Positions 1-37,692 of a stretch of 37,692 nt of DNA are shown piece after piece (position 1 is the first letter of the stretch; each line of letters opens with the position of its first letter). Below the pieces are notes generated by a model, which was not told the DNA's origin, did no database searches, and saw only the letters and a list, made by a program, of their open reading frames with translations. The DNA is taken from positions 1 to 37,692 of the IMG/VR virus record IMGVR_UViG_2645727775_000019; one strand, given 5' to 3'. The DNA comes from a virus (Duplodnaviria; Heunggongvirae; Uroviricota; Caudoviricetes). A program made the translations under genes and the position numbers.

Positions 1-1158
1 ATGCTCACCGTTAAGCAGATTGAAGCAGCAAAGCCGAAAGAAAAACCATACCGCCTACTCGATGGTAATGGCCTGTACCTTTATGTCCCTGTATCAGGGA
101 AAAAGGTATGGCAGCTTCGCTACAAGATTGACGGTAAGGAGAAAATCCTGACCGTCGGAAAATATCCGCTTATGACTTTGCAGGAGGCAAGGGATAAGGC
201 ATGGACTGCGAGGAAAGACATCTCGGTTGGCATCGATCCGGTAAAGGCGAAAAAGGCTTCGTCTAACAACAATTCCTTTAGCGCCATTTACAAGGAATGG
301 TACGAGCACAAGAAGCAAGTCTGGTCAATAGGCTATGCAACTGAACTTGCAAAAATGTTTGATGACGACATTTTACCTATCATCGGCGGTCTTGAAATTC
401 AGGATATTGAGCCGATGCAACTGCTGGAAGTAATCCGCAGATTTGAAGATCGCGGTGCAATGGAACGAGCCAATAAAGCCCGCAGAAGATGCGGCGAGGT
501 TTTCCGTTACGCTATTGTCACCGGAAGGGCTAAATATAACCCGGCACCTGACCTTGCAGACGCCATGAAAGGATACCGCAAGAAGAACTTCCCGTTTCTT
601 CCAGCAGACCAGATCCCTGCATTCAACAAAGCACTGGCAACATTTTCAGGAAGCATCGTATCGCTCATTGCGACCAAAGTTTTACGCTACACAGCCCTAA
701 GAACGAAAGAGCTTCGTTCCATGCAATGGAAGAACGTCGATTTTGAAAACAGGATTATCACTATCGACGCCAGTGTGATGAAGGGCCGCAAGATTCATGT
801 TGTTCCTATGTCAGACCAGGTGGTTGAACTTCTCACTACGCTAAGCTCCATCACTAAACCAGTATCAGAGTTTGTTTTTGCCGGGCGCAACGATAAGAAG
901 AAGCCAATCTGCGAGAACGCGGTATTGCTTGTGATCAAACAAATCGGCTATGAGGGTCTGGAAAGCGGTCACGGATTCAGGCATGAATTCAGCACAATTA
1001 TGAACGAGCACGAATGGCCTGCTGACGCTATTGAAGTGCAACTGGCACATGCCAACGGCGGATCTGTGCGTGGGATTTACAACCATGCTCAGTATCTCGA
1101 TAAACGCAGAGAAATGATGCAATGGTGGGCGGACTGGCTTGATGAAAAGGTGGCATAG
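1..1158 (+). CDS. intS: P4-family tyrosine integrase (IntS-like)
   Basis: 385-aa ORF; N-terminus MLTVKQIEAAKPKEKPYRLLDGNGLYL is the typical P4-integrase arm-binding domain; C-terminal catalytic domain; length matches IntS. Confidence 0.9.
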   Translation: MLTVKQIEAAKPKEKPYRLLDGNGLYLYVPVSGKKVWQLRYKIDGKEKILTVGKYPLMTLQEARDKAWTARKDISVGIDPVKAKKASSNNNSFSAIYKEWYEHKKQVWSIGYATELAKMFDDDILPIIGGLEIQDIEPMQLLEVIRRFEDRGAMERANKARRRCGEVFRYAIVTGRAKYNPAPDLADAMKGYRKKNFPFLPADQIPAFNKALATFSGSIVSLIATKVLRYTALRTKELRSMQWKNVDFENRIITIDASVMKGRKIHVVPMSDQVVELLTTLSSITKPVSEFVFAGRNDKKKPICENAVLLVIKQIGYEGLESGHGFRHEFSTIMNEHEWPADAIEVQLAHANGGSVRGIYNHAQYLDKRREMMQWWADWLDEKVA

Positions 1159-1164
1159 CGCCAC

Positions 1165-1554
1165 CTACATCACAGGGCAATCATCAAACTCACCAGAACG
1201 CGCATCATTGATGATGTACGTTATCACCCCAAACAAATGCGACTCATCATCAAACAGGCTGGTCGGCTTTGGTATCTCCTCTACCGCTCCAGTCTCAAGA
1301 TTAATCAGATGTGGTTTAGGGTAGCGCTTGTATCGCTTCACTCTGAACTCATTGTCAACTGAACAAATCAGCAACGAGCCATCAAACGGCATCAGTGAAC
1401 TGTCAACGACGAGCAAAGCACCGTACATGATGCCTTCTCGCCAGTACGTTTTCCCTGACCGCATGAAGTACGTTGCCGATGGTTTGCTGATTAACGTCTC
1501 GTCGAGCGATATGCGTTGCTCAACGTAGTCTGCAGCCGGACTCGGGAATCCCAT
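1165..1554 (-). CDS. UmuD'-like (HumD-like) S24-fold protein, starting at the position of the UmuD self-cleavage site
   Basis: 129 aa beginning MGFPSPAADYVEQRI, matching UmuD from Gly25 onward (recalled sequence); true ATG start; the GDSM nucleophile motif reads GKTY here. Confidence 0.75.
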   Translation of the reverse strand: MGFPSPAADYVEQRISLDETLISKPSATYFMRSGKTYWREGIMYGALLVVDSSLMPFDGSLLICSVDNEFRVKRYKRYPKPHLINLETGAVEEIPKPTSLFDDESHLFGVITYIINDARSGEFDDCPVM

Positions 1555-1573
1555 GATGCACCTCAGTCATCAA

Positions 1574-1593
1574 TACTGGATAAAATCACAGTA
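1574..1593. promoter_or_regulatory. LexA (SOS) box overlapping the promoter of the UmuD'-like gene
   Basis: Plus-strand TACTGGATAAAATCACAGTA fits TACTG-N10-CAGTA; lies ~20 nt upstream of the minus-strand ATG and overlaps a TATACT -10-like hexamer. Confidence 0.6.
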
Positions 1594-1971
1594 TAAATGC
1601 TCTATATCAAATCAGCAAAGGAATAGGATAAGAATCTTTGCTGAACCGGTCTATATCATGAGACCCTTTGCAGGTTTACCAGAAAAAACCTTAGGTTTTA
1701 ATGAGCTAACAAAACGTGTCCTCCTAATCATTCTGGGTGCAAAGGTTAAGTTAATTCCTATGAATGAAATTCATGAAACAGTGCAAGTACAAGATGATAA
1801 AGAAGGTCTGCCATGAGTGCTTAAGGATGTGTTTGAATAATCCGCTATGCGTATGACATCCCTGGCTAAGGATAGTTCGCCATGTAGAGTTGTAGAATTG
1901 ATACAGGCTACCAGCATAATATCCAACGATAGCCTGCTCCGTATGTAGACATTATCTATATATAGATCCAC

Positions 1972-2946
1972 CTAAGTATATATTTTTGAGTTTGGTAATG
2001 CCTTCCTGAGCGCTTTAAAAACTATTGAAAGTACGTATTTATATACGTATGCAAAAATACAAACAATTACAACAAACAAGACGGATTTTATCCCATCTGA
2101 ACTTATAAACGATAATAAATGGTATGCTTTCATCAAAAACATGAATTCTATAAGATACATCTCGTAAGATAGTATGCCAATAAATTTCAATGGTGTTATG
2201 TTTATATTTGCAACTCTAAGAATCGATGTAATTCCAATTATAAGAAATGCGCTTGCTATATTTGTTGCTGCATAGTCAAAAAAACTAACATCAATCCCTT
2301 TATAAAAATAAAGGGATAAAATTAAGGACACCAAAGAAACTATGACAAACAAAAGTAATATCCATTTATCTATTGCATATCCTTTGACTTTTTCATACAC
2401 CACTCCAATTAGTGAACCTAGTGGAAATGCAGCAACGTATAGTCCGGCCCCTGCTGGAGGAGGGAATATATCTGCGTTTTTGTAAAGCAATACAGAAAAA
2501 AGGAAAAGGAAGGCTATTTTAATATTAATAGAGATATTAGCGCTAAAAATTAGAAAAAAAGCCAGATACCATATTATTATAAAAGATATATACCACATAC
2601 TAGGATCTATAGTGGCATTCAAATCAATGCCTAGTATGGTAATCGCTAAATGATAAAAGTCATCATTTGTAATTGCTGGATGTCCAAAAGCAATAATCCA
2701 AACAATGGTTATAATAGCGTATGGAACAAGTACTTTTGATAGCCTTTTTGAAAAAAAAGAATCCAACCCTGATTTAATGTAAGATTGCACAAGGCCAAAG
2801 CCTGACAGCATAAGGAATAGAGCAACACCATATGCCCCGGCGTGCGGGATTACATTTACATGCCCAAGCATGACAAGGAGAATAGCAACGCCTTTTAGTT
2901 CAATGGTGTGATCTCTATCAAAAATTACATTACTTATTTTTCTCAT
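1972..2946 (-). CDS. Acyltransferase family 3 integral membrane protein (O-antigen/LPS O-acetyltransferase-like), probable lysogenic conversion gene
   Basis: Multi-TM protein with N-terminal RKISNVIFDRDHTIELKGVAILLVMLGH motif typical of acyltransferase_3; very AT-rich compared with flanks; start taken at internal Met MRKISN. Confidence 0.75.
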   Translation of the reverse strand: MRKISNVIFDRDHTIELKGVAILLVMLGHVNVIPHAGAYGVALFLMLSGFGLVQSYIKSGLDSFFSKRLSKVLVPYAIITIVWIIAFGHPAITNDDFYHLAITILGIDLNATIDPSMWYISFIIIWYLAFFLIFSANISINIKIAFLFLFSVLLYKNADIFPPPAGAGLYVAAFPLGSLIGVVYEKVKGYAIDKWILLLFVIVSLVSLILSLYFYKGIDVSFFDYAATNIASAFLIIGITSILRVANINITPLKFIGILSYEMYLIEFMFLMKAYHLLSFISSDGIKSVLFVVIVCIFAYVYKYVLSIVFKALRKALPNSKIYT

Positions 2947-3149
2947 TTCATGACTACCTGCGCAGTTTTTCATTGCTAATGAATGTTGCATACTTTACAA
3001 AAGTATACTATACAGTATTTGCGTTGTCATTGAATATAAATATACCTGCGGCAGAATCATTATTGAGGAGGCCATAGCAGTGGATAATTCATCCACTGCC
3101 TAGTGCATATATCAATCGCATGATTGTATTTTTGACAAACCTGATTTAG

Positions 3150-3581
3150 CTATTCATCTGGAAAGGTTGGCCATATCACATGCTCTGGATCGGTTGAGAC
3201 ATTGATAGATTTAACGTCATTTTTAAATGCCAACCACGCCGACAGTTTCTCCTTGTTGGTGTCGTTGATTTCACCGAGCATCAGTTCTGTTCGCCAGTCG
3301 AGCATAGTTTCGTCCGCATGTGCCAGCAGTTGCTGGCGAATTTGTTCAGCGGCAGCAATAAGTTCGTCGTGTGTCGGTGGAGGCATATCCCCCCAGGCAG
3401 GATGTCCATCATCACCCGCGATGCGTACTTTCCCTTGCAACGTTCTGTCTTCAATAAATTCCAGGTAAGTGTCATATGTCACTTCGACAATATCAGCAAG
3501 TTCCCATCCGGCCTGTTCATGTTTCGCCACATCATTTTTAGCGAAAAAACTATTATTTGAGGCGCTATAAACCATTTCCAT
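3150..3581 (-). CDS. Tail fiber assembly protein (Tfa)
   Basis: 143 aa; start 1 nt after tail fiber stop; C-terminal region resembles Tfa chaperones. Confidence 0.8.
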   Translation of the reverse strand: MEMVYSASNNSFFAKNDVAKHEQAGWELADIVEVTYDTYLEFIEDRTLQGKVRIAGDDGHPAWGDMPPPTHDELIAAAEQIRQQLLAHADETMLDWRTELMLGEINDTNKEKLSAWLAFKNDVKSINVSTDPEHVIWPTFPDE

Positions 3582-3582
3582 A

Positions 3583-4374
3583 TTAATACCCTACTGCAAT
3601 ATAAAAAACTGATTCACCAGCGTCCTGAGAACCTACCCCCGGAACGCCAGACCAGGCTTTGTTAATGAATGCAAAACCGGTATTACTCAGATCAGATGCT
3701 CTGTACATCGGGCTGAACATCCAGTAGTTGGCTACATATGTTTGTCCGAAAACAATGCCATAGCACTGATTTGTAAATGGCGTAGAAAATAATTTTCCAC
3801 CAGTACCAGCGATAGTCCCGAATCGCATCTGGAACCCATTCGGGAAATTAATTCCGCCTGCCGGTGAAGACCAGTAAGACATATCAGGTATTTGCCCAGC
3901 ACTATTTCCCACGTTTTTTGTTGCAACGGTTCCTAACCCAAGATTAGCTCTTGCATCAGATTTATTTGTTAACTCATAAAGATTATTTTCCTTTTGAAGT
4001 GCTCCTGTTATGCGTAAATCATCACCAGCGGCAACGGTTCCGACTGTCGTGCCCACATCCCTTTTCGCCGCTTCTCCTAAACCAAGGTTTTCGAGAGCCG
4101 TTTGCACAGTGCCATCCGATTTGATATCGCCAAACGGATTCTTGCGGCTTAACAGCAGCGCACGAAGTGCGGTAAGCAGCTGGTCATGCCGCCCTTTCTC
4201 CAGGCTGGCACCGGAGGCCTCCACCACGCTACAAAGTTCTTCCTGCAACATGTCAAAGTAGTCATCATCCAGATCGGTGGCAGGCGTGCCAGTCTGGGGG
4301 TTACCACGGGTAAAACCGTTCTTACCCGCGCCGAACTTATCCTTCTGCGCGGTTTTCGTGTCTATACGATGCAT
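3583..4374 (-). CDS. Tail fiber protein (short, 263 aa)
   Basis: N-terminal [21 protein letters not shown] and repeated ANLGLG-type fiber motifs; position just upstream of Tfa. Confidence 0.75.
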
Positions 4375-4377
4375 GGA

Positions 4378-4962
4378 TTACTCCGGATATTTAAAAATTA
4401 CGTAGGTATGCGAAGGGCAGAGTTTGTTAAGCACGCACTCGACAACGGTGTCGCCCCAGATACGCAGTGCGGAATCACAGGGATCGCCACATGTCATCCA
4501 GGTGGTGTTGGTGGCGGCTGGCATGTTGACCTGCCAGTAATACCGCCATTCCGGCGCATTCACCGCGTCAGTACAGGCCGATGAGCAGGTGAACGTGCTT
4601 TTATCGTATCGCGTGATAGTGGCGTCTGGTCTGCCCAGGGCAGCAAGCTGTGCAAGGTAAAAATCCTCATTGATGCCGCCCGCCAGATTAACCTTCGCAT
4701 CCAGCCGTTGCTGACGCTGGCGAAGGGTCTGTGTCCCTGCGGGAATACATTCATCCGGCAGACCGCACAGACGCTCCCAGCGGTTTATCAGTTCAGTGGT
4801 GGTGCGCGGATCCAGCTCCCGCATCAGGGCATCCGCACGCTGATGAACACGGGTTAATGACGGTGCCGCACCTGCAATCGCCGGATCGCTGGCTGACCAC
4901 GCCGGACCGGGCGGCAGCAGTGTCGACAACAGACGGATGTAATCATCGTTTGTCACGTCCAT
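4378..4962 (-). CDS. Mu gp48-like / YmfQ-like tail protein (DUF2313-type)
   Basis: 194 aa; position after baseplate J-like gene; resemblance to YmfQ-type tail proteins. Confidence 0.65.
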
Positions 4963-6011
4963 GAAATCGTCCCCAGAACCGCCAGTTCATTTTTTGCAAT
5001 GGAGATATTGTCCGCCGGTGCAAGCAACTGATGGCTGTATTCCCCGTTCGCACCGGAAATCGCTTCACTGATACGTGACACCTTCAGTTCTCCCTGCGGA
5101 TAACCATCACGCAGCAGGAACGAACGCAACTCGGCGGTGATGGCAGCCCGTATTTCCGGTGTGTCCGGCGTCACGCGGATATGAAAATCCACTTTATGCG
5201 CCACCGGCCTGAACACATACAAATCAGAGCCTGCCACCGGGGCCAGTGGCCAGATATGTTGTCTTGCCGCCGTTTCCGTTGATTCTTCCGGAATGGGATT
5301 AATCAGGTCACTGCTGGCAATCATCACACCGACAGTTCCCGTTCCCATCCAGTGACGGTATGTCCATGCGCGGGTAATGCCGGGCACTTCTTTAGCCCAG
5401 ACGACATAGTCCCCGTCAGCCCCGCCCTGCGGCGTCCAGTAATACCGCTCAATGACGCGGGCGCGCCACGTTTCCAGATCTTCAGTATCGAATCCGCCAG
5501 TCAGGGTATCTGCAACACCGGAAGACGGCAGACCATTCACCGGCGTGACCAGGATTAATGCCGTACCGTCGTCAGCGTTACCGACCGCGCCTGTAGTTGA
5601 GCAAGTGATCGGCACACGCAGGACACCACCGGAGCTGGTTGCATCGGCAGTTGCCGTGTACTGAACCAGGTCATCGCGCTGAATCACGCTCCCGGCAGTC
5701 ACCTTCAGGCCATCGCTGACACCTTCCCAGCGCATATACCCGCTGGCAGCCGTGGCCCCCTTGCGCGGACACCGTTTCATCGCAGCATGTCGCGCCAGCC
5801 AGGACTCATCGCACAGGTCAGGCAGCATATTCATTGCCAGATAATCGATGTACCCGTAAACCGTATGCAGCGCCGCCGCATACACCTTTGCCCGCACGTC
5901 TTCATCCATGCGCCGGAGCGTGTCGCTGACGTCCAGCCTGGCGAATAAATCGTTACGGAGCATACTGATATTTTCTGCCAGCGTCGGGCGCTGAAATTCA
6001 CTGTCCGCCAT
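4953..6011 (-). CDS. Baseplate J-like protein (Mu gp47-like)
   Basis: 352 aa; synteny with gp45/gp46-like genes; baseplate J family resemblance. Confidence 0.8.
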
Positions 6012-6426
6012 GCGTTATCGCACTCCACAGATCATCAAAAGAAATCATTACCGGTCCGTCACGACGCCAGAGAGTGATACTGTTACCCAGCTCATTAATC
6101 CCGGTGCGGCGGATATCCAGATCAATACGGGACACCACGCCGTCATCAATCATCCATTGCAGGCATTCGCGGATATACCCCCTTACCGTCTGCACCAGCT
6201 GATTGGTCAGTTTGCTGCGCTGAAGCAGCCACAGTCGGGAGCCGTAACGGTCATTCTGTACCGCAGGCCAGGTATCCCCCCACCATCCCATCGGGACGTC
6301 GGCGTTGTCATCAGGCTCCGCCCGCCGCCAGGTGAACAGGGAAATCACCACGGCGCGGGTCAGCGGATCCAGCGGTGCGCTGGCGCAGGTGCGTTTACCG
6401 TTCACCGTCAGCCACAGTTCCATCAT
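5998..6426 (-). CDS. Mu gp46-like baseplate protein
   Basis: 142 aa; between baseplate V-like and J-like genes. Confidence 0.7.
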   Translation of the reverse strand: MMELWLTVNGKRTCASAPLDPLTRAVVISLFTWRRAEPDDNADVPMGWWGDTWPAVQNDRYGSRLWLLQRSKLTNQLVQTVRGYIRECLQWMIDDGVVSRIDLDIRRTGINELGNSITLWRRDGPVMISFDDLWSAITHGGQ

Positions 6427-6971
6427 GCCTCCATCGCTTTATCAGGTTTGTCGGTGTTACTGCCCTGACCGTTCTCTCTGTGACGATGCCCGTTATAGGC
6501 AAGCCGCATCGCTGACATGGTGGTGCCGCCGGAGTCGCACAGGTCTTTCACCTGTCCTGTCACTTCCAGGTCCATTTCAAAACGTGCTTTAGGTGAATTG
6601 CGAAACGTGATCGTTTTACCTGCACCGTCCACCACGATCCCCTCCCGGGTCAGCGTCACGGACTGCCCCTGATCGTCATAGACAGCCACCTCACCCGTCT
6701 GCAGCCCTTTCAGGCGGTAGCGCCGGTCCGACACCGTAACAACCACCGCATGAGAACGGTCGCCATCCGGAAACAACACCACCGCTTCCGCACCGCTGTT
6801 TGCCCTTGCGGTAAAACCGTAGGGTTCAAGATGTTCAACCCCGGCTTTGGGTTCACCGGCAATCAGAGACACATCCACGGTCTGACATTTCGTGGCGGCA
6901 CTGATGCTTTTCACCACTGCCCGCCCAATCAGGCCGAGGAGTTGTCGCTGCATGGCTTCAATCGTCCTCAT
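6423..6971 (-). CDS. Baseplate assembly protein V / spike (Mu gp45-like)
   Basis: 182 aa; 4-nt overlap with downstream gene; family resemblance. Confidence 0.75.
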   Translation of the reverse strand: MRTIEAMQRQLLGLIGRAVVKSISAATKCQTVDVSLIAGEPKAGVEHLEPYGFTARANSGAEAVVLFPDGDRSHAVVVTVSDRRYRLKGLQTGEVAVYDDQGQSVTLTREGIVVDGAGKTITFRNSPKARFEMDLEVTGQVKDLCDSGGTTMSAMRLAYNGHRHRENGQGSNTDKPDKAMEA

Positions 6972-8050
6972 CAGAACGGGTCCTCCTGTACTCTGGCTTT
7001 TTTCTTTTTCCGCGCGCCGGGGGCTTCGGGTTCAGGCAGATAAGCATCAGGTGGGCCGACACGGATTTCCGTCAGGGTGCCGTTCTGGTCCTGAGTAAAC
7101 GTGACTTCCGAAACAAGCAGTTCGGTATTGTCGAAACCACAGACCGGATCAAAGACAATCACCCGCTGGTTGGGCTGCCACAGCGTACCGTTACCCTGTC
7201 GCCAGCCCTGCACCACATAGGTGGTTTCATCCGTCCGCGCCGCCCGTTGTCGGGCTTCAAAGTCCGCACGGGCAATACAGCCTGCCCCCGTAGCCTGCCC
7301 TGTCTGCCTGATATACATCGGACGGTAACGGGCAATAAATGCATCCTCTGTGCGGGCCCGCAGCGCGGTGGTGGTGGCCTCACCGAAATCATCATCGTTT
7401 CCGGCACGCTGCCCCGCCACCTGGTAAACTGAAAACCGCTCCCGGATACTCTTCTCCGTATCACAGGAAAGGATGTTTTCCCCAAGTACCAGCGCGGTAT
7501 GTGCCCGCGTTGAGCCAATACCGCCAATCACCAGCCTGCCGTGCGGGTCGTCGTAAGCCAGTGCCTGCTGCTGACCGAGTATTTTGTTGATTACCTCAAT
7601 CACCGTTTCACCGTGATCAGGCTGGACATCAGGAATAACACCCGACGGCGCACCGCTGTTCACCACCTCAATGCCGAAAGGCGCAGCAAGCGCCTGCGCA
7701 ATCTGTACCAGCGATCGTCCGTTAAACTGTGTCGGTTCGGCTGCACAGTCAATCAGGTCAGCGGTCAGACTGCGTCCGGCAATACCGGTGCTGACCGAAC
7801 GGGCATCGTAACGAACGGGCGTCGCCTCCACCCAGCCGGTGATCACCAGCTCATCACCAATCAGCACCTCCACTTTTGAACCGTTTTTAATGCGCGGCTG
7901 AAGCGTGGTAATCCCCTCATCTCCCGGCCACTGGCGGGTGATCTCCACACTGAAATCCCGCGCCAGCCGTTCAATACCGGCACCGATGCGCACTGATGTC
8001 CAGCCATTCCACTCCCGGCCATTTACCCGTAGCGTGACATTGTCGTTCAT
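6971..8050 (-). CDS. Mu P-like tail/baseplate hub protein (late control D family)
   Basis: 359 aa; follows DNA circulation protein as in Mu-like tail modules. Confidence 0.75.
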   Translation of the reverse strand: MNDNVTLRVNGREWNGWTSVRIGAGIERLARDFSVEITRQWPGDEGITTLQPRIKNGSKVEVLIGDELVITGWVEATPVRYDARSVSTGIAGRSLTADLIDCAAEPTQFNGRSLVQIAQALAAPFGIEVVNSGAPSGVIPDVQPDHGETVIEVINKILGQQQALAYDDPHGRLVIGGIGSTRAHTALVLGENILSCDTEKSIRERFSVYQVAGQRAGNDDDFGEATTTALRARTEDAFIARYRPMYIRQTGQATGAGCIARADFEARQRAARTDETTYVVQGWRQGNGTLWQPNQRVIVFDPVCGFDNTELLVSEVTFTQDQNGTLTEIRVGPPDAYLPEPEAPGARKKKKARVQEDPF

Positions 8051-9423
8051 TGCACTGGCACCTTCAGAGGGATCACCGGCACAAAGCCGGGATGCGTAAT
8101 GGCATTACGCCGGATAATGTCCGCGTCACGCGCCGCGTTATCAAACCAGGCCGCCGCCAGCACCAGCGCGGGTAAAACCTCATCCGGTGTGCGCTGAATG
8201 ATCCGTGCAGACTGTTCAAGGCGCGTGTTGATATCCGCATTCAGATCTGCTTTCACCCGGCGCAGCGCCAGAAACAGCGCATCACTGGTTGTACGGGACA
8301 ACTCCTTATCAATTGCCGTATTCAGTGTGTCGCGAATGTCGGTCAGTTCTTCCCACGTCGGCAGGTCAACCGTGTTTTTCACCGCCGGTGCATTGTTCAG
8401 TGCCGGATGCGTGACGGAAGGCCAGCAAGTGCTCTGCGCAGGTGTTGTTGCCTGCCCCACTGCGGCATTCTGCATCACCGCGGAAGTTGTTAGCGCAGGC
8501 AATCGGGTGACGGCATACGCCGCTTCGCTGATTGCGGTCGTACGAAGGGTGCTGGCAACCACGTTACGCTGCTGCGTCGCCGTGGCGGTGGTTTTACTGT
8601 CCGTTTTCCAGACGCCGCGCGGTTGCAGATCGCTGCCGAGGCTGACACCGGAAAGCGTTTTGATCATGGTGACCAGGTCGCTGGCGTTACCATAAAGGCG
8701 TTTCCCGGTACGCCACATTTTCTGCACCTGCTCAACGAAATTTTTGCCTGACGATGGCGGCGGCAGAAGTACCGAGATATCCCCCTGCAACAGCCTGGCG
8801 GCATCCGATACGGCAGAATCCACCACTTTCATCGCATCAGAAACATACCCCAGCATTATGCTGGCATTACCGATAACGTCGTTCTGCACGAAATCCGCCA
8901 CACCATCGATACTGAAACCGCTGAAGCTGTCACTGATGCAGTCATCCAGTGCAGAACAGGATGACATCAGCGTCTGCGCCGTCGCCGCACCTGATGTGGG
9001 GTAAGAGAGTTCTCCCGCTTCGACAAACTTCAGGTCAAAGCGGACAATACGCCCTTCACTCTTCGATGTGCTGACCCGAACTTCTCCGTCAACACAGACT
9101 TTCAGCTCACCGTATGTCGGATGGACAAGCGTGCCGGGACCGGGTTTATTCAGCGCGTCAATCAGGCGATCGCGCTGGTCAAAGCAGTCATCTCCCACCA
9201 CATAAGCCGTGATGGACGGGCGAAAAGTGATTTTCCCCAGGTCTTCGGTATAGGGTTTGTCGCGGTTCGGGTATTCATGTGTTTCCACACGGCGACCGGT
9301 TCCCGCACTTTCTTCTTCAACCTTAAACGGCACGCCGCGAAATGACGCGTCCTGGAGTCTGTCACGCCAGCCTGAAGACGACGAAAGTAATGAAGGTCGG
9401 GTGGGAAATGAGGATAAATCCAT
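8047..9423 (-). CDS. Mu N-like DNA circulation protein
   Basis: 458 aa; N-terminal domain resembles Mu gpN DNA circularisation protein; directly downstream of tape measure. Confidence 0.75.
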   Translation of the reverse strand: MDLSSFPTRPSLLSSSSGWRDRLQDASFRGVPFKVEEESAGTGRRVETHEYPNRDKPYTEDLGKITFRPSITAYVVGDDCFDQRDRLIDALNKPGPGTLVHPTYGELKVCVDGEVRVSTSKSEGRIVRFDLKFVEAGELSYPTSGAATAQTLMSSCSALDDCISDSFSGFSIDGVADFVQNDVIGNASIMLGYVSDAMKVVDSAVSDAARLLQGDISVLLPPPSSGKNFVEQVQKMWRTGKRLYGNASDLVTMIKTLSGVSLGSDLQPRGVWKTDSKTTATATQQRNVVASTLRTTAISEAAYAVTRLPALTTSAVMQNAAVGQATTPAQSTCWPSVTHPALNNAPAVKNTVDLPTWEELTDIRDTLNTAIDKELSRTTSDALFLALRRVKADLNADINTRLEQSARIIQRTPDEVLPALVLAAAWFDNAARDADIIRRNAITHPGFVPVIPLKVPVQ

Positions 9424-31293: not shown

Positions 31294-31968
31294 ATGAAAA
31301 CAATCCATGACATCCGGCGGTCTAACGCCAGAAAACTGAGAGATGGTGTTGGCGGGAATTCTTCCTTTGCCACTATGATTGATCGCGAGCCAACCCAGAC
31401 CAGCAGGTTTATGGGAGATGGTGCTACTAAAAATATCGGTGACAGCATGGCACGACACATCGAAAAATGTTTCGACCTACCTGTCGGATGGCTCGATCAA
31501 GAACACCAGACAACGAACATCACAAAAAAACCTGATGTTTCAATCACTAATAAACAAATCACATTAGTCCCTGTCATATCATGGGTACAGGCCGGAGCAT
31601 GGAAAGAAGTTGGATATTCTGAGGTTGATTTGAGCACAGCAGAAACGTATCCCTGCCCTGTACCCTGTGGGGAAATGACTTATATCTTGCGGGTGATAGG
31701 TGATTCAATGATTGATGAGTACCGCCCGGGAGACATGATTTTTGTCGATCCTGAAGTACCTGCCTGCCACGGTGACGACGTTATTGCATTGATGCACGAT
31801 ACAGGTGAAACCACCTTCAAAAGGTTAATAGAAGATGGGACACAGCGTTATCTCAAAGCGTTAAACCCAAACTGGCCTGAGCCTTACATTAAGATCAACG
31901 GTAATTGCTCTATAATTGGTACAGTGATTTTCTCAGGAAAACCAAGAAGATACAAAATCAAAGCCTAA
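31294..31968 (+). CDS. cI: CI-like repressor (HTH plus S24 autopeptidase domain)
   Basis: 224 aa; C-terminal GDSM Ser and FKRL Lys dyad intact. Confidence 0.85.
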   Translation: MKTIHDIRRSNARKLRDGVGGNSSFATMIDREPTQTSRFMGDGATKNIGDSMARHIEKCFDLPVGWLDQEHQTTNITKKPDVSITNKQITLVPVISWVQAGAWKEVGYSEVDLSTAETYPCPVPCGEMTYILRVIGDSMIDEYRPGDMIFVDPEVPACHGDDVIALMHDTGETTFKRLIEDGTQRYLKALNPNWPEPYIKINGNCSIIGTVIFSGKPRRYKIKA

Positions 31969-31980
31969 TCAATGTTTATG

Positions 31981-32004
31981 AACCTGCTTCGGCAGGTTTT
32001 TTTA
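31981..32004 (+). terminator. Intrinsic terminator after cI
   Basis: AACCTGC-TTCG-GCAGGTT hairpin followed by TTTTTTTAT. Confidence 0.7.
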
Positions 32005-32007
32005 TAC

Positions 32008-32036
32008 TTGACAATGTACCTTTGAGATACATAATG
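32008..32036 (+). promoter_or_regulatory. pL-like promoter with overlapping operator-like half sites
   Basis: TTGACA, 16-17 nt spacer, CATAAT/ATAATG; TGTAC half-sites similar to OR inside and beside the spacer. Confidence 0.5.
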
Positions 32037-32212
32037 TACCCAAGAGAAACAACGAACAGGCAGGACGCCCACGAAGTAGCCGCCTGGGGCATATGAAGTC
32101 CAGGATGATTCGTTGAGTCATGTTGTGCCACTAGGCACTCATGTTAAAGCAGGTGTATGAAATGAAAGTCCAGATTTTAAACAATAACTGTGAAGTCGTT
32201 TGGGCGTAAAAC

Positions 32213-32419
32213 ATGACCGCGCGTAGACCAAGGGAGGAAAAAGTGGGAATAGTTAGAAATCAAGCAGATATATTGAAAATCAGCTCTGAATTACTTGGAG
32301 TTTTGAAAAGTGAGCTCACCGCACATGGCATCGAGCCCACTGACGAAAATTTAAGATGGGTTTTGTCGATTATTCAACAATCACTCAAGCCCAGCCTCAG
32401 CAAACTTTTTATCGAGTAG
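32213..32419 (+). CDS. Hypothetical small protein (68 aa; alternative GTG start at 32243 with GGGAGG site)
   Basis: AT-rich; Arg-rich N-terminus MTARRPREEK; first gene after pL-like promoter. Confidence 0.4.
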   Translation: MTARRPREEKVGIVRNQADILKISSELLGVLKSELTAHGIEPTDENLRWVLSIIQQSLKPSLSKLFIE

Positions 32420-32572
32420 TGCTTCGAACTTATCGTAAAGCTTGCTTATGTCGTCTATCGGGTTTTCTGACGTACTGTAATTTTTATCTGATGTCATGGC
32501 AGCAGTCTGATATGCAGTGTGAGTCTTAACCGATAGTTGGAATAAATAAAGAATTTTTTCTTCTTTGGTCAT
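32381..32572 (-). CDS. Hypothetical small protein (63 aa), convergent and overlapping with previous
   Basis: ATG with AAGGAAA site; MTKEEKILYLFQLSVKTHTAY...; 39-nt 3' overlap with the plus-strand small gene. Confidence 0.4.
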   Translation of the reverse strand: MTKEEKILYLFQLSVKTHTAYQTAAMTSDKNYSTSENPIDDISKLYDKFEALLDKKFAEAGLE

Positions 32573-32682
32573 AACTATTTCCTTCTTGGCTATATGAAAA
32601 CACCAAGATACCACCGAGCCTGAAGTGGTGAAAAGACAGGCACATAACAGCTAAGTATTTTCAACCAAAGAGAATCCTTAGC

Positions 32683-32960
32683 GTTGTGGTGAATGCGGCT
32701 CAGCGCACGCGGGTTAAGGTTGAGGCTGACAGTCGACCTTCTGTGGATACCCACCCGTCTGGTGTGCAACCTTCGCCAGGCACCGGGAGGCACCCGGCAC
32801 CACAACTTTATGCTGTGTGTAGTCCTGGCGGTACCAGTTTGTACCCTTGCTTCCGGCTGGTACCGTCCTTTTTACAAAACAGAGAAGAGCATCACCGGAC
32901 GACGGGCTCATAACCCAATCCATCCGGGCGGCTGCCACCGCAGGTGTTCTTCTCTGTTTT
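32683..32960 (+). other. GC-rich non-coding segment with multiple long-range inverted repeats (candidate structured RNA or cis-regulatory element)
   Basis: GTTGTGGTG/CACCACAAC (9 bp), CGGTACCAG/CTGGTACCG (9 bp, then CCTTTTT), AAACAGAGAAGA/TCTTCTCTGTTT (12 bp); translations in all frames are not protein-like. Confidence 0.3.
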
Positions 32961-34390: not shown

Positions 34391-34927
34391 ATGTCATTTA
34401 TTAAAACTTTTTCCGGGAAGCATTTTTATTATGACAAGATAAATAAAGACGACATCGTGATTAACGATATCGCGGTTTCCCTTTCAAATATCTGCCGCTT
34501 TGCCGGTCATCTTTCTCACTTCTACAGTGTCGCCCAACATGCGGTGCTTTGCAGCCAGCTGGTGCCGCAGGAATTTGCTTTTGAAGCGTTAATGCATGAT
34601 GCAACAGAAGCGTATTGCCAGGACATCCCCGCACCACTGAAACGCCTTCTTCCTGACTATAAACGGATGGAAGAAAAAATAGATGCAGTAATCCGTGAGA
34701 AATACGGGTTACCTCCTGTTATGAGCACGCCAGTGAAATATGCCGATCTCATTATGCTGGCAACCGAACGCCGTGATCTCGGGCTTGATGATGGCTCTTT
34801 CTGGCCTGTACTGGAAGGCATCCCGGCAACAGAGATGTTCAACGTGATTCCACTGGCACCGGGTCATGCCTACGGGATGTTTATGGAACGTTTTAACGAT
34901 TTATCGGAGTTACGCAAATGCGCATGA
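34391..34927 (+). CDS. yfdR: HD-domain phosphohydrolase (YfdR-like 5'-deoxynucleotidase)
   Basis: 178 aa from MSFIKTF with GGAG site; H...HD metal-binding motif (LMHDATEA). Confidence 0.7.
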   Translation: MSFIKTFSGKHFYYDKINKDDIVINDIAVSLSNICRFAGHLSHFYSVAQHAVLCSQLVPQEFAFEALMHDATEAYCQDIPAPLKRLLPDYKRMEEKIDAVIREKYGLPPVMSTPVKYADLIMLATERRDLGLDDGSFWPVLEGIPATEMFNVIPLAPGHAYGMFMERFNDLSELRKCA

Positions 34928-35280
34928 ATGTTTTCGAAATGGAAGGGTTTCTTCGCGGGAAATGTGTACCGCGAGATCTGAAAGTGAACGAAACAAATGC
35001 TGAGTACCTGGTACGTAAATTCGACGCGCTTGAAGCTAAATGTGCGGCACTGGAAAACAAAATAATACCAGTGTCAGCTGAACTGCCACCAGCAAATGAA
35101 AGTGTTCTGTTATTTGATGCTAATGGAGAAGGCTGGCTGATTGGCTGGCGTTCTCTCTGGTACACCTGGGGACAAAAAGAAACCGGAGAATGGCAGTGGA
35201 CATTTCAGGTTGGGGACCTTGAAAACGTCAATATCACTCACTGGGCAGTAATGCCAAAAGCACCGGAGGCTGGAGCATAA
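34918..35280 (+). CDS. yfdS: YfdS-like protein
   Basis: 120 aa; overlaps upstream gene; Trp-rich C-terminal domain. Confidence 0.6.
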   Translation: MRMNVFEMEGFLRGKCVPRDLKVNETNAEYLVRKFDALEAKCAALENKIIPVSAELPPANESVLLFDANGEGWLIGWRSLWYTWGQKETGEWQWTFQVGDLENVNITHWAVMPKAPEAGA

Positions 35281-35585
35281 TGACCACATTTACCAATAAA
35301 GAACTGATTAAAGAAATCAAAGAACGAATCAGCAGCCTAGAGGTTCGAGACGATATTGAGCGCCGTGCTTATGAAATCGCACTCGTATCTCTGGAAGTAG
35401 AGCCAGATGAACGCGAAGCCTATGAATTATTCATGGAAAAGCGTTTCGGTGACTTAGTAGATCGTCGGAGAGCAAAAAACGGCGATAACGAATACATGGC
35501 ATGGGATATGACTCTCGGTTGGATCGTCTGGCAGCAACGAGCTGGTATCCATTTTTCAACAATGTCACAGCAAGAGGTGAAATAA
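35280..35585 (+). CDS. yfdT: YfdT-like protein
   Basis: 101 aa; start overlaps previous stop. Confidence 0.6.
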   Translation: MTTFTNKELIKEIKERISSLEVRDDIERRAYEIALVSLEVEPDEREAYELFMEKRFGDLVDRRRAKNGDNEYMAWDMTLGWIVWQQRAGIHFSTMSQQEVK

Positions 35586-35716
35586 TGGAGCCATACAGCC
35601 TCACACTCGATGAGTCCTGTTCATTTCTCAAGATATCCAGACCTACCATTGCTGCATCAATGCGGCTTTTTATTGCCTGATTTGCAGGTTCGATTCCATA
35701 TTCGGAGATAGCACTC

Positions 35717-35917
35717 ATGCAACACGAACTACAACCTGATTCACTGGTTGATTTGAAATTCATCATGGCTGATACTGGCTTCGGTAAGACCTTCATCTAT
35801 GACCGGATTAAGTCCGGCGACCTGCCTAAAGCCAAAGTTATCCACGGACGAGCAAGATGGTTATATCGTGACCATTGTGAATTCAAAAATAAGCTCTTAA
35901 GCCGCGCCAATGGGTAA
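35717..35917 (+). CDS. torI: AlpA/TorI-type excisionase (recombination directionality factor)
   Basis: 66 aa MQHELQPDSLVDLKFIMADTGFGKTFIYDRIKSGDLPKAKV...; winged-helix Xis fold family; adjacent to attR. Confidence 0.85.
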   Translation: MQHELQPDSLVDLKFIMADTGFGKTFIYDRIKSGDLPKAKVIHGRARWLYRDHCEFKNKLLSRANG

Positions 35918-35990
35918 AATAGCGGGTAAAATATTTTTCACATCTAAAAAACACCATTCCAATCAATCCCCTGCCGCCTCAAGTAGATGT

Positions 35991-36005
35991 CTGCAGGGGA
36001 CACCA
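35991..36005 (+). repeat. attR core: copy of tRNA 3' end (CTGCAGGGGACACCA)
   Basis: Acceptor-stem 3' half plus CCA; matches argW 3' end as recalled; plus orientation as expected when int lies downstream of the tRNA at attL. Confidence 0.6.
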
Positions 36006-36444
36006 GATACCCTTCAAACGATATCTACCTTCACCCCGTAAAAGATAAGTTTGGCAGCACATTTGCCCTATCTACTCATTTTTCCTGCAACAGGTTGAAA
36101 TCTCAACACGGTCAGAAAACGCTGATGACTAAACAGCCCTGGGCCGGGCGATGTAACCATCACACACAATCCTGATCGCGAAATATGGCGTGACTTGATA
36201 CTTCACTCCACAATGCTTTCCTTGATGAATTCGCAGGCCCGTGATACACGGGACAGGTCGCTGAATTACGACAATGCCCTGGAAATCAGCGAGCCGTGTA
36301 TCCAGAGTACATTTGAGCGACTGTACCAGAACATGAATGAGGCGTTTGGATTAGGCGATTATTAGCAGGGCTAAGCATTTTGGTATTATTATTTTCCGGT
36401 TGAGGGATATAGAGCTATCGACAACAACCGGAAAAAGTTTACGT

Positions 36445-37692
36445 TTATATTGCTGAAGGTACTGGCGTTTCCATCACTATTTGCTCACGTTTTTTACTCA
36501 GGAAGAAAATGCCAAATAGCAACATCAGGCAGACAATACCCGAAATTGCGAAAAAAACCGTCTGGTAGCCTGCGTGGTCAAAGAGTATCCCAGTCGGCGT
36601 TGAAAGCAGCACAATCCCCAACGAACTGGCAATTTGAAAACCAATCAGAAAGATCGTCGACGACAGGCGCTTATCAAAATTTGCCACGCTGTATTTGAAG
36701 ACGGATATGACACAAAGTGGAACCTCAATGGCATGTAACAGCTTCACTAATGAAATAATCCAGGGGTTAACGAATAGCGCGCAGGAAAGGATACGCAACG
36801 CCATAATCACAACACCGATAAGTAATGCATTTTTTGGCCCTACCCGATTCACAAAGAAAGGAATAATCGCCATGCACAGCGCTTCGAGTACCACCTGGAA
36901 TGAGTTGAGATAACCATACAGGCGCGTTCCTACATCGTGTGATTCGAATAAACCTGCATAAAAGACAGGAAAGAGTTGTTGATCAAAAATGTTATAGAAA
37001 GACCACGTCCCCACAATAAATATGACGAAAACCCAGAAGTTTCGATCCTTGAAAACTGCGATAAAATCCTCTTTTTTTACCCCTCCCGCATCCGCCGCTA
37101 TGCACTGGTGATCCTTATCTTTAAAACGCATGTTGATCATCATAAATACAGCGCCAAATAGCGAGACCAACCAGAAGTTGATATGGGGACTGATACTAAA
37201 AAATATACCGGCAAAGAACGCGCCAATAGCATAGCCAAAAGATCCCCAGGCGCGCGCTGTTCCATATTCGAAATGAAAATTTCGCGCCATTTTTTCGGTG
37301 AAGCTGTCAAGCAAACCGCATCCCGCCAGATACCCCAGGCCAAAAAAGAGCGCCCCCAGAATTAGACCTGCAGAAAAATTGCTTTGCAGTAACGGTTCAT
37401 AAACGTAAATCATAAACGGTCCGGTCAAGACCAGAATGAAACTCATACACCAGATGAGCGGTTTCTTCAGACCGAGTTTATCCTGAACGATGCCGTAGAA
37501 CATCATAAATAGAATGCTGGTAAACTGGTTGACCGAATAAAGTGTACCTAATTCCGTCCCTGTTAATCCTAGATGTCCTTTCAGCCAAATAGCGTATAAT
37601 GACCACCACAGCGACCAGGAAATAAAAAAGAGAAATGAGTAACTGGATGCAAAACGATAGTACGCATTTCTGAATGGAATATTCAGTGCCAT
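36445..37692 (-). CDS. cscB: LacY-family oligosaccharide:H+ symporter (sucrose permease CscB-like), host gene
   Basis: 415 aa, 12-TM MFS permease with LacY-like N-terminus; outside the prophage. Confidence 0.75.
   Translation of the reverse strand: MALNIPFRNAYYRFASSYSFLFFISWSLWWSLYAIWLKGHLGLTGTELGTLYSVNQFTSILFMMFYGIVQDKLGLKKPLIWCMSFILVLTGPFMIYVYEPLLQSNFSAGLILGALFFGLGYLAGCGLLDSFTEKMARNFHFEYGTARAWGSFGYAIGAFFAGIFFSISPHINFWLVSLFGAVFMMINMRFKDKDHQCIAADAGGVKKEDFIAVFKDRNFWVFVIFIVGTWSFYNIFDQQLFPVFYAGLFESHDVGTRLYGYLNSFQVVLEALCMAIIPFFVNRVGPKNALLIGVVIMALRILSCALFVNPWIISLVKLLHAIEVPLCVISVFKYSVANFDKRLSSTIFLIGFQIASSLGIVLLSTPTGILFDHAGYQTVFFAISGIVCLMLLFGIFFLSKKREQIVMETPVPSAI

Follow-up and report, generated by a model that had tools for sequence, protein, structure and literature searches.

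What does the low-GC gene near the left end of this prophage encode, and why does it lie between the integrase and the tail genes? The stretch of DNA analysed (IMG/VR record IMGVR_UViG_2645727775_000019, 37,692 nucleotides, called the window here in its full length) carries an SfV-like prophage at argW, and the gene occupies positions 1972–2946 on the minus strand. It is recognised from its sequence as an intact gene for an inner-membrane acyltransferase of the acyltransferase_3 (AT3) family, AT3-only and with ten predicted transmembrane (TM) helices, carried as cargo in the slot used for O-antigen modification. We favour, with moderate confidence, O-acetylation of the O-antigen or of another receptor polysaccharide as its function, giving seroconversion and superinfection exclusion.

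The acyltransferase gene and its product

The longest reading of the open reading frame (ORF) spans 1972–2991 on the minus strand (339 aa) and contains three candidate in-frame ATG starts, at 2991, 2973 and 2946. In a homologue with 84% identity an in-frame TAA (…AGT CGT TAA ATG AGA…) closes the 15-codon extension upstream of the third ATG, and therefore the conserved start is the ATG at 2946; neither the in-frame ATG at 2973 nor that at 2991 is likely to serve as a start, and the 339-aa and 333-aa readings were dropped because of this stop codon. Both the coordinates and the start given in an earlier reading made from the letters alone (the sequence-only reading) are thus upheld. That the ORF is real and not a chance reading is confirmed by a ratio of nonsynonymous to synonymous substitution (dN/dS) of 0.18 against the 84% homologue, both proteins being 324 aa long, and by the presence of the exact protein on at least 24 E. 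coli contigs from draft assemblies, where it is annotated only as 'acyltransferase family protein'.

The gene has a GC content of 32.6% (26.5% at third codon positions, GC3) against a window mean of 50.8% (sd 5.6% in 975-bp windows) and is the lowest-GC stretch of the whole window, so that the low-GC block noticed in the sequence-only reading is borne out by computation. The low-GC island extends from about 1555 to 3149, with flanking spacers of 38.4% (1555–1971) and 35.5%, and the adjacent baseplate genes have 57%.

The product matches Pfam Acyl_transf_3 (PF01757) with 63.4 bits (cut-off 31; E=2.4e-17) over residues 32–320 of the 339-aa form and profile positions 7–323 of 326, and PHROG 3333 ('O-acetyltransferase') with 53.6 bits (E=3e-14); no NCBIfam subfamily model fits it. 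PF01757 is the sole Pfam domain, there is no SGNH or second domain, and the model is an all-helical membrane protein, giving an AT3-only architecture like that of Oac, WecH and Lag-1. The AlphaFold model (pLDDT 92.5, pTM 0.90) predicts ten long TM helices, as in the ten-helix TmAT fold of AT3 proteins and at the low end of the 10–12 that had been proposed. The human lysosomal heparan-alpha-glucosaminide N-acetyltransferase (HGSNAT) differs in being eukaryotic, larger, an N-acetylating enzyme and only 15% identical, and bears only on the fold and general mechanism.

In AT3 proteins an R-X10-H motif in the first TM helix is called absolutely conserved and an RXXR motif lies at the cytoplasmic face of the third; OafB, OafA and Oac require the motif residues, which are modelled to bind acetyl-CoA inside a central pore, the His lying close to the thioester on the periplasmic side (PMC9833829). 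The corresponding positions were taken from an alignment of 29 clade sequences and from the hhalign register with Oac of phage Sf6. H29 is invariant across the 29 sequences, and K18, 11 residues before it (window ~2893–2895), is Lys in 26 and Arg in three and aligns with R11 of Oac. At this position the residue is changed and the charge kept, and the Lys-for-Arg swap is judged from the alignment to be a small oddity. The RXXR-type motif is represented by R68, which is nearly invariant, and K71 three residues on, which is Lys or Arg across the clade; both align with the R73/R76 region of Oac. Further conserved clade positions are F44, L45, S48, G49 and S260-Y-E262-x-Y-L, and the window protein retains all of the catalytic-motif positions in the alignment.

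Cargo of the int-proximal slot

The left end of the window is organised as follows.

1–1158, plus strand: intS-type tyrosine integrase for the argW site, at the left prophage end (Pfam Phage_integrase, Arm-DNA-bind_3 and Phage_int_M)
1165–1554, minus strand: humD-like gene for a UmuD′-type S24 protein (NCBIfam HumD equivalog, 217.8 bits, cut-off 120)
1555–1971, no strand: low-GC spacer (38.4% GC) from the acyltransferase stop to the humD start
1972–2946, minus strand: coding sequence of the AT3-only membrane acyltransferase, 324 aa
2947–3149, minus strand: chaperone–acyltransferase spacer of 203 bp, conserved between the window and an 82%-identical cassette
3150–3581, minus strand: tail fibre assembly chaperone (Caudo_TAP; PF02413, E=1.4e-21; dN/dS 0.22)
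3583–4149, minus strand: distal, receptor-side ~190 C-terminal residues of the 263-aa tail fibre, with a cassette boundary inside the gene
4150–4374, minus strand: backbone-specific N-terminal part of the fibre, on the baseplate attachment side

The acyltransferase gene thus lies 3′ of the Caudo_TAP gene (3150–3581), and a humD-like gene and a 417-bp spacer separate it from int. The sequence-only reading had placed it between the tail fibre assembly gene and int; this is the right slot, with the two intervening elements to be added on the int side. The surrounding backbone is that of an SfV-type phage, window 4050–29000 matching Shigella phage SfV at 97% identity over 82% of its length, and the integrase is 96–97% identical to E. 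coli intS, which adjoins argW and yfdC. What lies between int and the tail fibre assembly gene in related prophages is listed here.

SfV: gtrA-gtrB-gtrV
K-12 CPS-53: yfdG-yfdH-yfdI, from intS to the fibre assembly genes
SfII: gtrA-gtrB-gtrII, an insertion sequence (IS) and the AT3 gene SfII_25 (oacD)
Other E. coli: an unrelated 375-aa AT3 protein, or a DUF1919 protein

The type-specific genes of the slot (gtrV, gtrII, yfdI, SfII_25, the other AT3 gene and the DUF1919 gene) all have GC contents of 27.6–34.6%, and comparison of these genomes marks the int-proximal slot as a general hot spot for surface-modification cargo. With humD as an extra gene, the acyltransferase sits in the serotype-conversion slot of an SfV-type genome; there are no gtr genes in window 1–4400. 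As expected of a moron, it deviates in GC content and is absent from SfV, SfI, SfII, SfIV and 5,426 complete E. coli genomes. The argument from position made in the sequence-only reading, which had correctly stated that yfdG/H/I of K-12 lie between intS and the tail fibre assembly genes, is correct and stronger than its author knew, because the backbone is 97% SfV and the slot holds O-antigen modification genes in SfV, K-12 and SfII. The host range of SfI/SfV-type phages follows O-antigen serotype, and O-antigen modification is a proposed immunity mechanism (PMC3636060).

The gtrABX clusters (SfV, SfI, SfII and CPS-53 yfdGHI) resemble the window gene in sharing the slot, a low-GC type-specific component and the same presumed modification of the O-antigen receptor, and differ in that glucosylation requires three proteins, against one acyltransferase, from unrelated families. 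A closer parallel in position is OacD (SfII_25) of phage SfII, given in a review (PMC9558356) as responsible for 6-O-acetylation of O-antigen N-acetylglucosamine. OacD is AT3-only, of similar size (349 aa) and low GC (31.4%), and comes from the same slot and the same phage family. Its sequence, however, is related to that of the window protein at the superfamily level only (BLASTP E=0.39, hhalign probability 34%), so that the window protein is not OacD-like by similarity, and OacD scores nothing on PHROG 3333, where the window protein has 53.6 bits. The two genes are also arranged differently: oacD runs in the direction of int and gtr, in company with gtrA/B/II and an IS, whereas the window gene stands in place of gtr and runs with the tail genes, opposite to gtr and oacD in the SfV/SfII family.

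Several observations concern the slot and the rest of the prophage. The unrelated AT3 gene of the slot (L001 3384–4511, an E. coli argW prophage) has low GC and its product scores 160 bits on PHROG 3333; the DUF1919 gene (L002 2852–3439, also an E. coli argW prophage) likewise has low GC. The window prophage encodes a CI-type repressor, a CII-like protein and a Q antiterminator and looks complete. The repressor is a 224-aa S24 protein (31294–31968, plus strand) encoded opposite a cro/YdaS-like ORF and the CII-like gene, and a second low-GC stretch (~41%) is situated at this immunity region (~31300–32700). The right end (34500–37692) contains yfdR/S/T and torI, followed by a chromosomal LacY-family transporter; its identity to the best complete E. 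coli genomes is just ~96%, only 11 of the 5,426 span it in one piece, and this junction arrangement is uncommon.

A fibre-tip cassette and the relatives of the acyltransferase

A 99.6%-identical copy of the block 1167–4149, which comprises the fibre tip, chaperone, acyltransferase, spacer and humD, exists in an unrelated tail backbone. The loci that carry the block are listed with their identity to the window, the span matched, the backbone and the site.

L073: 100% over 1–8946; SfV-type backbone; argW
L072, L074 and L076: 99.6% over 4149–1167 only; Wedge1-type backbone; next to dacD-sbmC-yeeA
L071: 98.7% over 4088–1; Wedge1-type backbone; argW
L070, L075 and L077: 99.2% over 7488–1101; SfV-type baseplate; dacD

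In the last three (E. coli), early genes of yfdP/yfdQ type are joined directly to pieces of the baseplate hub gene, and these loci are therefore deleted remnants in which the cassette is nonetheless intact. A more distant copy is present in an E. coli prophage beside smpB/ssrA, where a block 82% identical to window 4096–1871 (blastn) takes in two-thirds of the fibre, on its C-terminal side, together with the chaperone, the acyltransferase and the next ~100 bp. The baseplate of the ssrA prophage differs (Sheath_initiator, a 399-aa Baseplate_J and Phage_Wedge1). Divergence between the two prophages is similar for the three genes, with identities of ~79–88% for the fibre tip, 83% for the chaperone and 84% for the acyltransferase and a dN/dS of 0.18–0.22 in every case. 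The cassette thus occupies two chromosomal sites, or three with the 84% variant counted.

Identity to the SfV/SfII backbone ends at ~4049–4078, inside the fibre gene, and the cassette match reaches 4096–4149. The N-terminal part of the fibre is 96–98% identical to that of SfI, SfII, SfV and SKA5 and its aa identity to the other backbone's fibre is just 33–35%. Compared with the tips of SfV, SfI, SfII and SfIV, the window's tip reaches only ~30% identity, and compared with that of L003, 79%. At the int side the 99.6% match ends at 1167, with humD as the terminal gene, and homology to the 84% variant ceases ~100–130 bp past the acyltransferase stop codon.

By these comparisons the ~3-kb module enters at least two unrelated tail backbones whole, by recombination, and its presence at 99.6% identity in an unrelated backbone at another site indicates that the acyltransferase moves together with receptor specificity. 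The sequence-only reading had suggested that an acyltransferase took the place of gtrABS. The cargo of the slot does differ, yet the exchange was not a simple swap, the region having been replaced by the ~3-kb cassette with fibre tip, chaperone and humD. That the gene is part of a mobile fibre-tip cassette is new here and is the most useful addition.

Some smaller features lie at the humD end. A LexA-box-like sequence, TACTGTGATTTTATCCAGTA (CTG-N10-CAG), is situated at 1573–1592 just upstream of the humD start, and the 49 bp upstream of humD (1572–1620) are 84% conserved upstream of a Citrobacter humD; no umuC partner is found nearby. A small rightwards ORF (1553–1816), called as 52 or 86 aa in public assemblies, is probably no real gene. 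Its start shares bases with that of humD, which is on the opposite strand, and neither Pfam nor PHROG gives a match.

Close relatives of the acyltransferase are rare. The gene and its flanks have no DNA match in the 5,426 complete E. coli genomes or in 50,697 phage records (megablast, blastn), and tblastn of the protein against the phage records gives nothing but one weak metagenomic match. The 84% variant occurs in E. coli and Citrobacter amalonaticus. Assemblies with either the exact protein or this variant include GCA_032644545.1, GCA_002463005.1, GCA_043244355.1, GCA_048640985.1, GCA_017073775.1 and GCA_040140785.1. Relatives of 52–60% identity are present in Citrobacter freundii, Enterobacter asburiae, Aeromonas hydrophila and further assemblies, one of them in a small island beside carotenoid genes, and relatives of ~40% in Clostridium and Lysinibacillus; a scan of species-representative genomes yields only relatives of ≤38% identity, in Clostridia, Bacteroidales and others. 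The best homologues are thus uncharacterised prophage acyltransferases and not peptidoglycan enzymes, and the gene is intact in relatives, two outcomes that agree with the sequence-only reading, which as a whole is partly supported.

Relatives of 53–84% identity lie in at least five other prophage backbones, mostly directly after a tail fibre or tailspike gene. Those of 55–57% directly follow P22-type tailspike genes in two different phage contexts, one in Citrobacter freundii and one from sequencing-run assemblies; the two tailspikes are 77% identical and their acyltransferases 74%. Divergence of the acyltransferase tracks that of its receptor-binding neighbour, with a 79% fibre tip accompanying an 84% AT3 protein and a 77% tailspike a 74% one. 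A 40% relative follows tail fibre genes in a Lysinibacillus prophage. In an Aeromonas hydrophila P2-like prophage (L016 10001–10978) a 52–53% relative is flanked by the genes for a CI-type repressor and the integrase, all three running in the same direction. This places it in the lysogeny module, unlike in Enterobacterales, where the position is at the tail end. Clade members are also found in integrase-bearing prophage remnants, and the Clostridium putrefaciens relative occupies one plain chromosomal site. The GC content is well below that of the surroundings in every member (30–36% in Proteobacteria, 25–27% in two Firmicute examples). In the Citrobacter freundii prophage L007 an IS (rve-family transposase; 6719–7866) interrupts the tail region upstream of the tailspike–acyltransferase pair, which is followed by dinI and humD beside yfdC, in the argW neighbourhood, with no integrase at that end.

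Taken further, and as a tentative proposal, 1167–4149 may be a portable 'recognise-and-mask' cassette in which a fibre tip and its chaperone are joined to an enzyme that modifies the same receptor, with humD as a passenger. Such a unit would recombine into unrelated myovirus tail backbones and att sites and have a parallel tailspike version in P22-like phages, and its acyltransferase would define an uncharacterised, phage-specialised AT3-only clade with Lys in R-X10-H and a low-GC (Firmicute-like) origin. That the gene itself has no current function and is carried only through tail-fibre recombination is very improbable. Its rarity, with absence from all 5,426 complete E. coli genomes, is what would be expected of a passenger; this is outweighed by the dN/dS of 0.18 with both the gene and its 84% variant at 324 aa, by retention of every catalytic-motif position, by intact copies in at least 24 contigs and several prophage remnants, and by conservation of the clade across genera at 53–60% identity.

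The analogy with oac of phage Sf6 drawn in the sequence-only reading can be qualified. Sf6 Oac is the model for seroconversion and superinfection exclusion and blocks Sf6 superinfection (PMC9558356). In architecture and position the analogy stands: Oac (OacA) is AT3-only (333 aa) and encoded between the receptor-binding (tailspike) gene and int, both proteins match PHROG 3333, and their N-terminal basic-x10-His and FxxSG motifs are in register. It does not extend to orthology, because BLASTP gives E=0.04 over 37 residues, which is not significant, and the hhalign probability is 41%. The score on PHROG 3333, through which the only remote match to the Oac subfamily is made, is 230.5 bits for Oac versus 53.6 for the window protein, and tblastn of the window protein against the phage records does not recover Sf6. 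Oac has Arg11 and an RxRR cluster where the window protein has Lys and RxxK, and Sf6 has a podovirus backbone with oac convergent with the tailspike gene, unlike the arrangement in the window. OafA and OafB (GtrC family II; Salmonella, phage BTP1), which are prophage-borne and acetylate O-antigen (PMC9833829; PMC9558356), share the AT3 domain, in which they have R-X10-H and RXXR motifs and a pore for acetyl-CoA. They differ from the 324-aa AT3-only window protein in having a fused periplasmic SGNH domain, and no tblastn similarity to them is detectable with the window protein in the phage collection.

Expression, acceptor and biological meaning

The 203-bp spacer between the chaperone and acyltransferase genes contains a hairpin (3075–3101) with an 11-bp stem that is conserved in the 82% copy; predicted folding energies are −19.2 (window) and −23.7 kcal/mol (82% copy), with z scores of −3.5 and −4.7, and the stem has a compensatory A-U to G-C change between the two. 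Since no U tract follows, the hairpin does not qualify as a canonical terminator; a role in stabilising a 3′ end or in binding a protein is conceivable. Rfam gives no match in 1100–3700. The spacer has one sigma-70-like match (−35 ATGACA at 3030, −10 TATACT ending at 3002; 10/12). The region has no excess of promoter-like sites (5 against 8.9 expected), and an independent promoter for the acyltransferase is therefore not claimed.

The orientation of the gene raises the question of when it is expressed. Were it transcribed mainly as the last late tail gene, it might have its effect during the lytic cycle; acetylated receptors on the dying cell and its debris, for instance, would no longer trap progeny virions. 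Consistent with this are its co-directionality with the fibre and chaperone genes 203 bp upstream, the recurrence of the same order after tailspikes and tail fibres in other phages, the hairpin without a U tract before it, and a promoter match that is weak and not conserved. We nevertheless consider a lytic role improbable. The Aeromonas relative is co-directional with repressor and integrase, a lysogeny context, and retention of an intact gene in degraded prophage remnants argues for a benefit to the host cell. Classical morons 3′ of tail genes, such as lambda lom, are co-directional with them yet expressed in lysogens, and O-antigen turnover would be slow relative to the lytic cycle. Expression of the acyltransferase in the lysogen is plausible.

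For modification of a surface polysaccharide in the lysogen, the reading that we prefer, we infer the donor, acceptor, expression and phenotype as follows. By analogy with other AT3 proteins, acetyl-CoA would enter the central pore from the cytoplasm, its 3′-phosphate would be held by the basic residues K18 and R68/K71, and on the periplasmic side, close to H29, a sugar hydroxyl of the polysaccharide would receive the acetyl group; such transmembrane, acyl-CoA-dependent transfer to an extracytoplasmic sugar is supported by family, fold and motifs. The probable acceptor would be the repeat unit of the O-antigen, or else a different polysaccharide that the phage uses as its own receptor. The choice is made because of the slot, the repeated linkage and co-divergence with receptor-binding proteins, and the biology of Sf6 and SfI/SfV-type phages. 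In the lysogen the O-antigen epitope would be changed, such that phages with the same fibre tip adsorb poorly (superinfection exclusion).

Several points weigh against this reading. AT3 acceptors are diverse, including enterobacterial common antigen (ECA), osmoregulated periplasmic glucans, capsule, peptidoglycan and secreted products (PMC9558356), and hence the substrate does not follow from family membership alone. Some relatives come from Gram-positive prophages and from chromosomes of bacteria without lipopolysaccharide (LPS), so that the clade is not O-antigen-specific. No close characterised enzyme was found, with BLASTP against Sf6 Oac, SfII OacD and the other slot AT3 protein giving no significant match, and the 'absolutely conserved' Arg of R-X10-H is Lys here and in 26 of the 29 clade members. 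The gene is oriented like the late tail genes, unlike gtr and oacD of the SfV/SfII family; its sole promoter-like match (10/12) is degraded in the 84% variant; and a terminator scan finds no intrinsic terminator after its stop codon.

An active enzyme could instead modify another envelope glycan (K-antigen or colanic-acid capsule, ECA, LPS core, periplasmic glucans or peptidoglycan), the benefit being evasion of phages or immunity and not O-serotype conversion. AT3-only enzymes with such acceptors are known, for example WecH on ECA, OpgC on glucans and IcaC on poly-N-acetylglucosamine (PMC9558356), the nearest relatives outside Proteobacteria are from Firmicutes, which are without LPS, and no sequence feature assigns the acceptor. 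We regard this as rather unlikely, since the slot serves O-antigen modification in every characterised case of SfV-like phages and the Enterobacterales members of the clade adjoin tail fibre tips and P22-type tailspikes. Peptidoglycan O-acetylases of the AT3 family carry a fused SGNH domain (PMC9558356), and the window protein is without one. Were capsule the receptor, the logic of masking one's own receptor would still hold.

As modification of the phage's own receptor by a prophage-borne AT3 enzyme is a textbook concept, the gain is incremental: the acyltransferase gene is most likely an ordinary kind of lysogenic conversion gene from an uncharacterised branch, and the gene itself will not surprise a specialist. 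If the enzyme does acetylate an E. coli O-antigen, this would explain O-acetyl groups for which the O-antigen cluster contains no gene, and the gene would be an unlisted determinant for in-silico serotyping. A small AT3-only enzyme with a Lys variant of R-X10-H would also be of use for mechanistic work. The cassette would then be a natural case in which receptor specificity and receptor masking are swapped together between prophages, a joint exchange relevant to predicting a phage's host range and to the choice of therapeutic phages, and cassette and clade together offer a clean, testable system.

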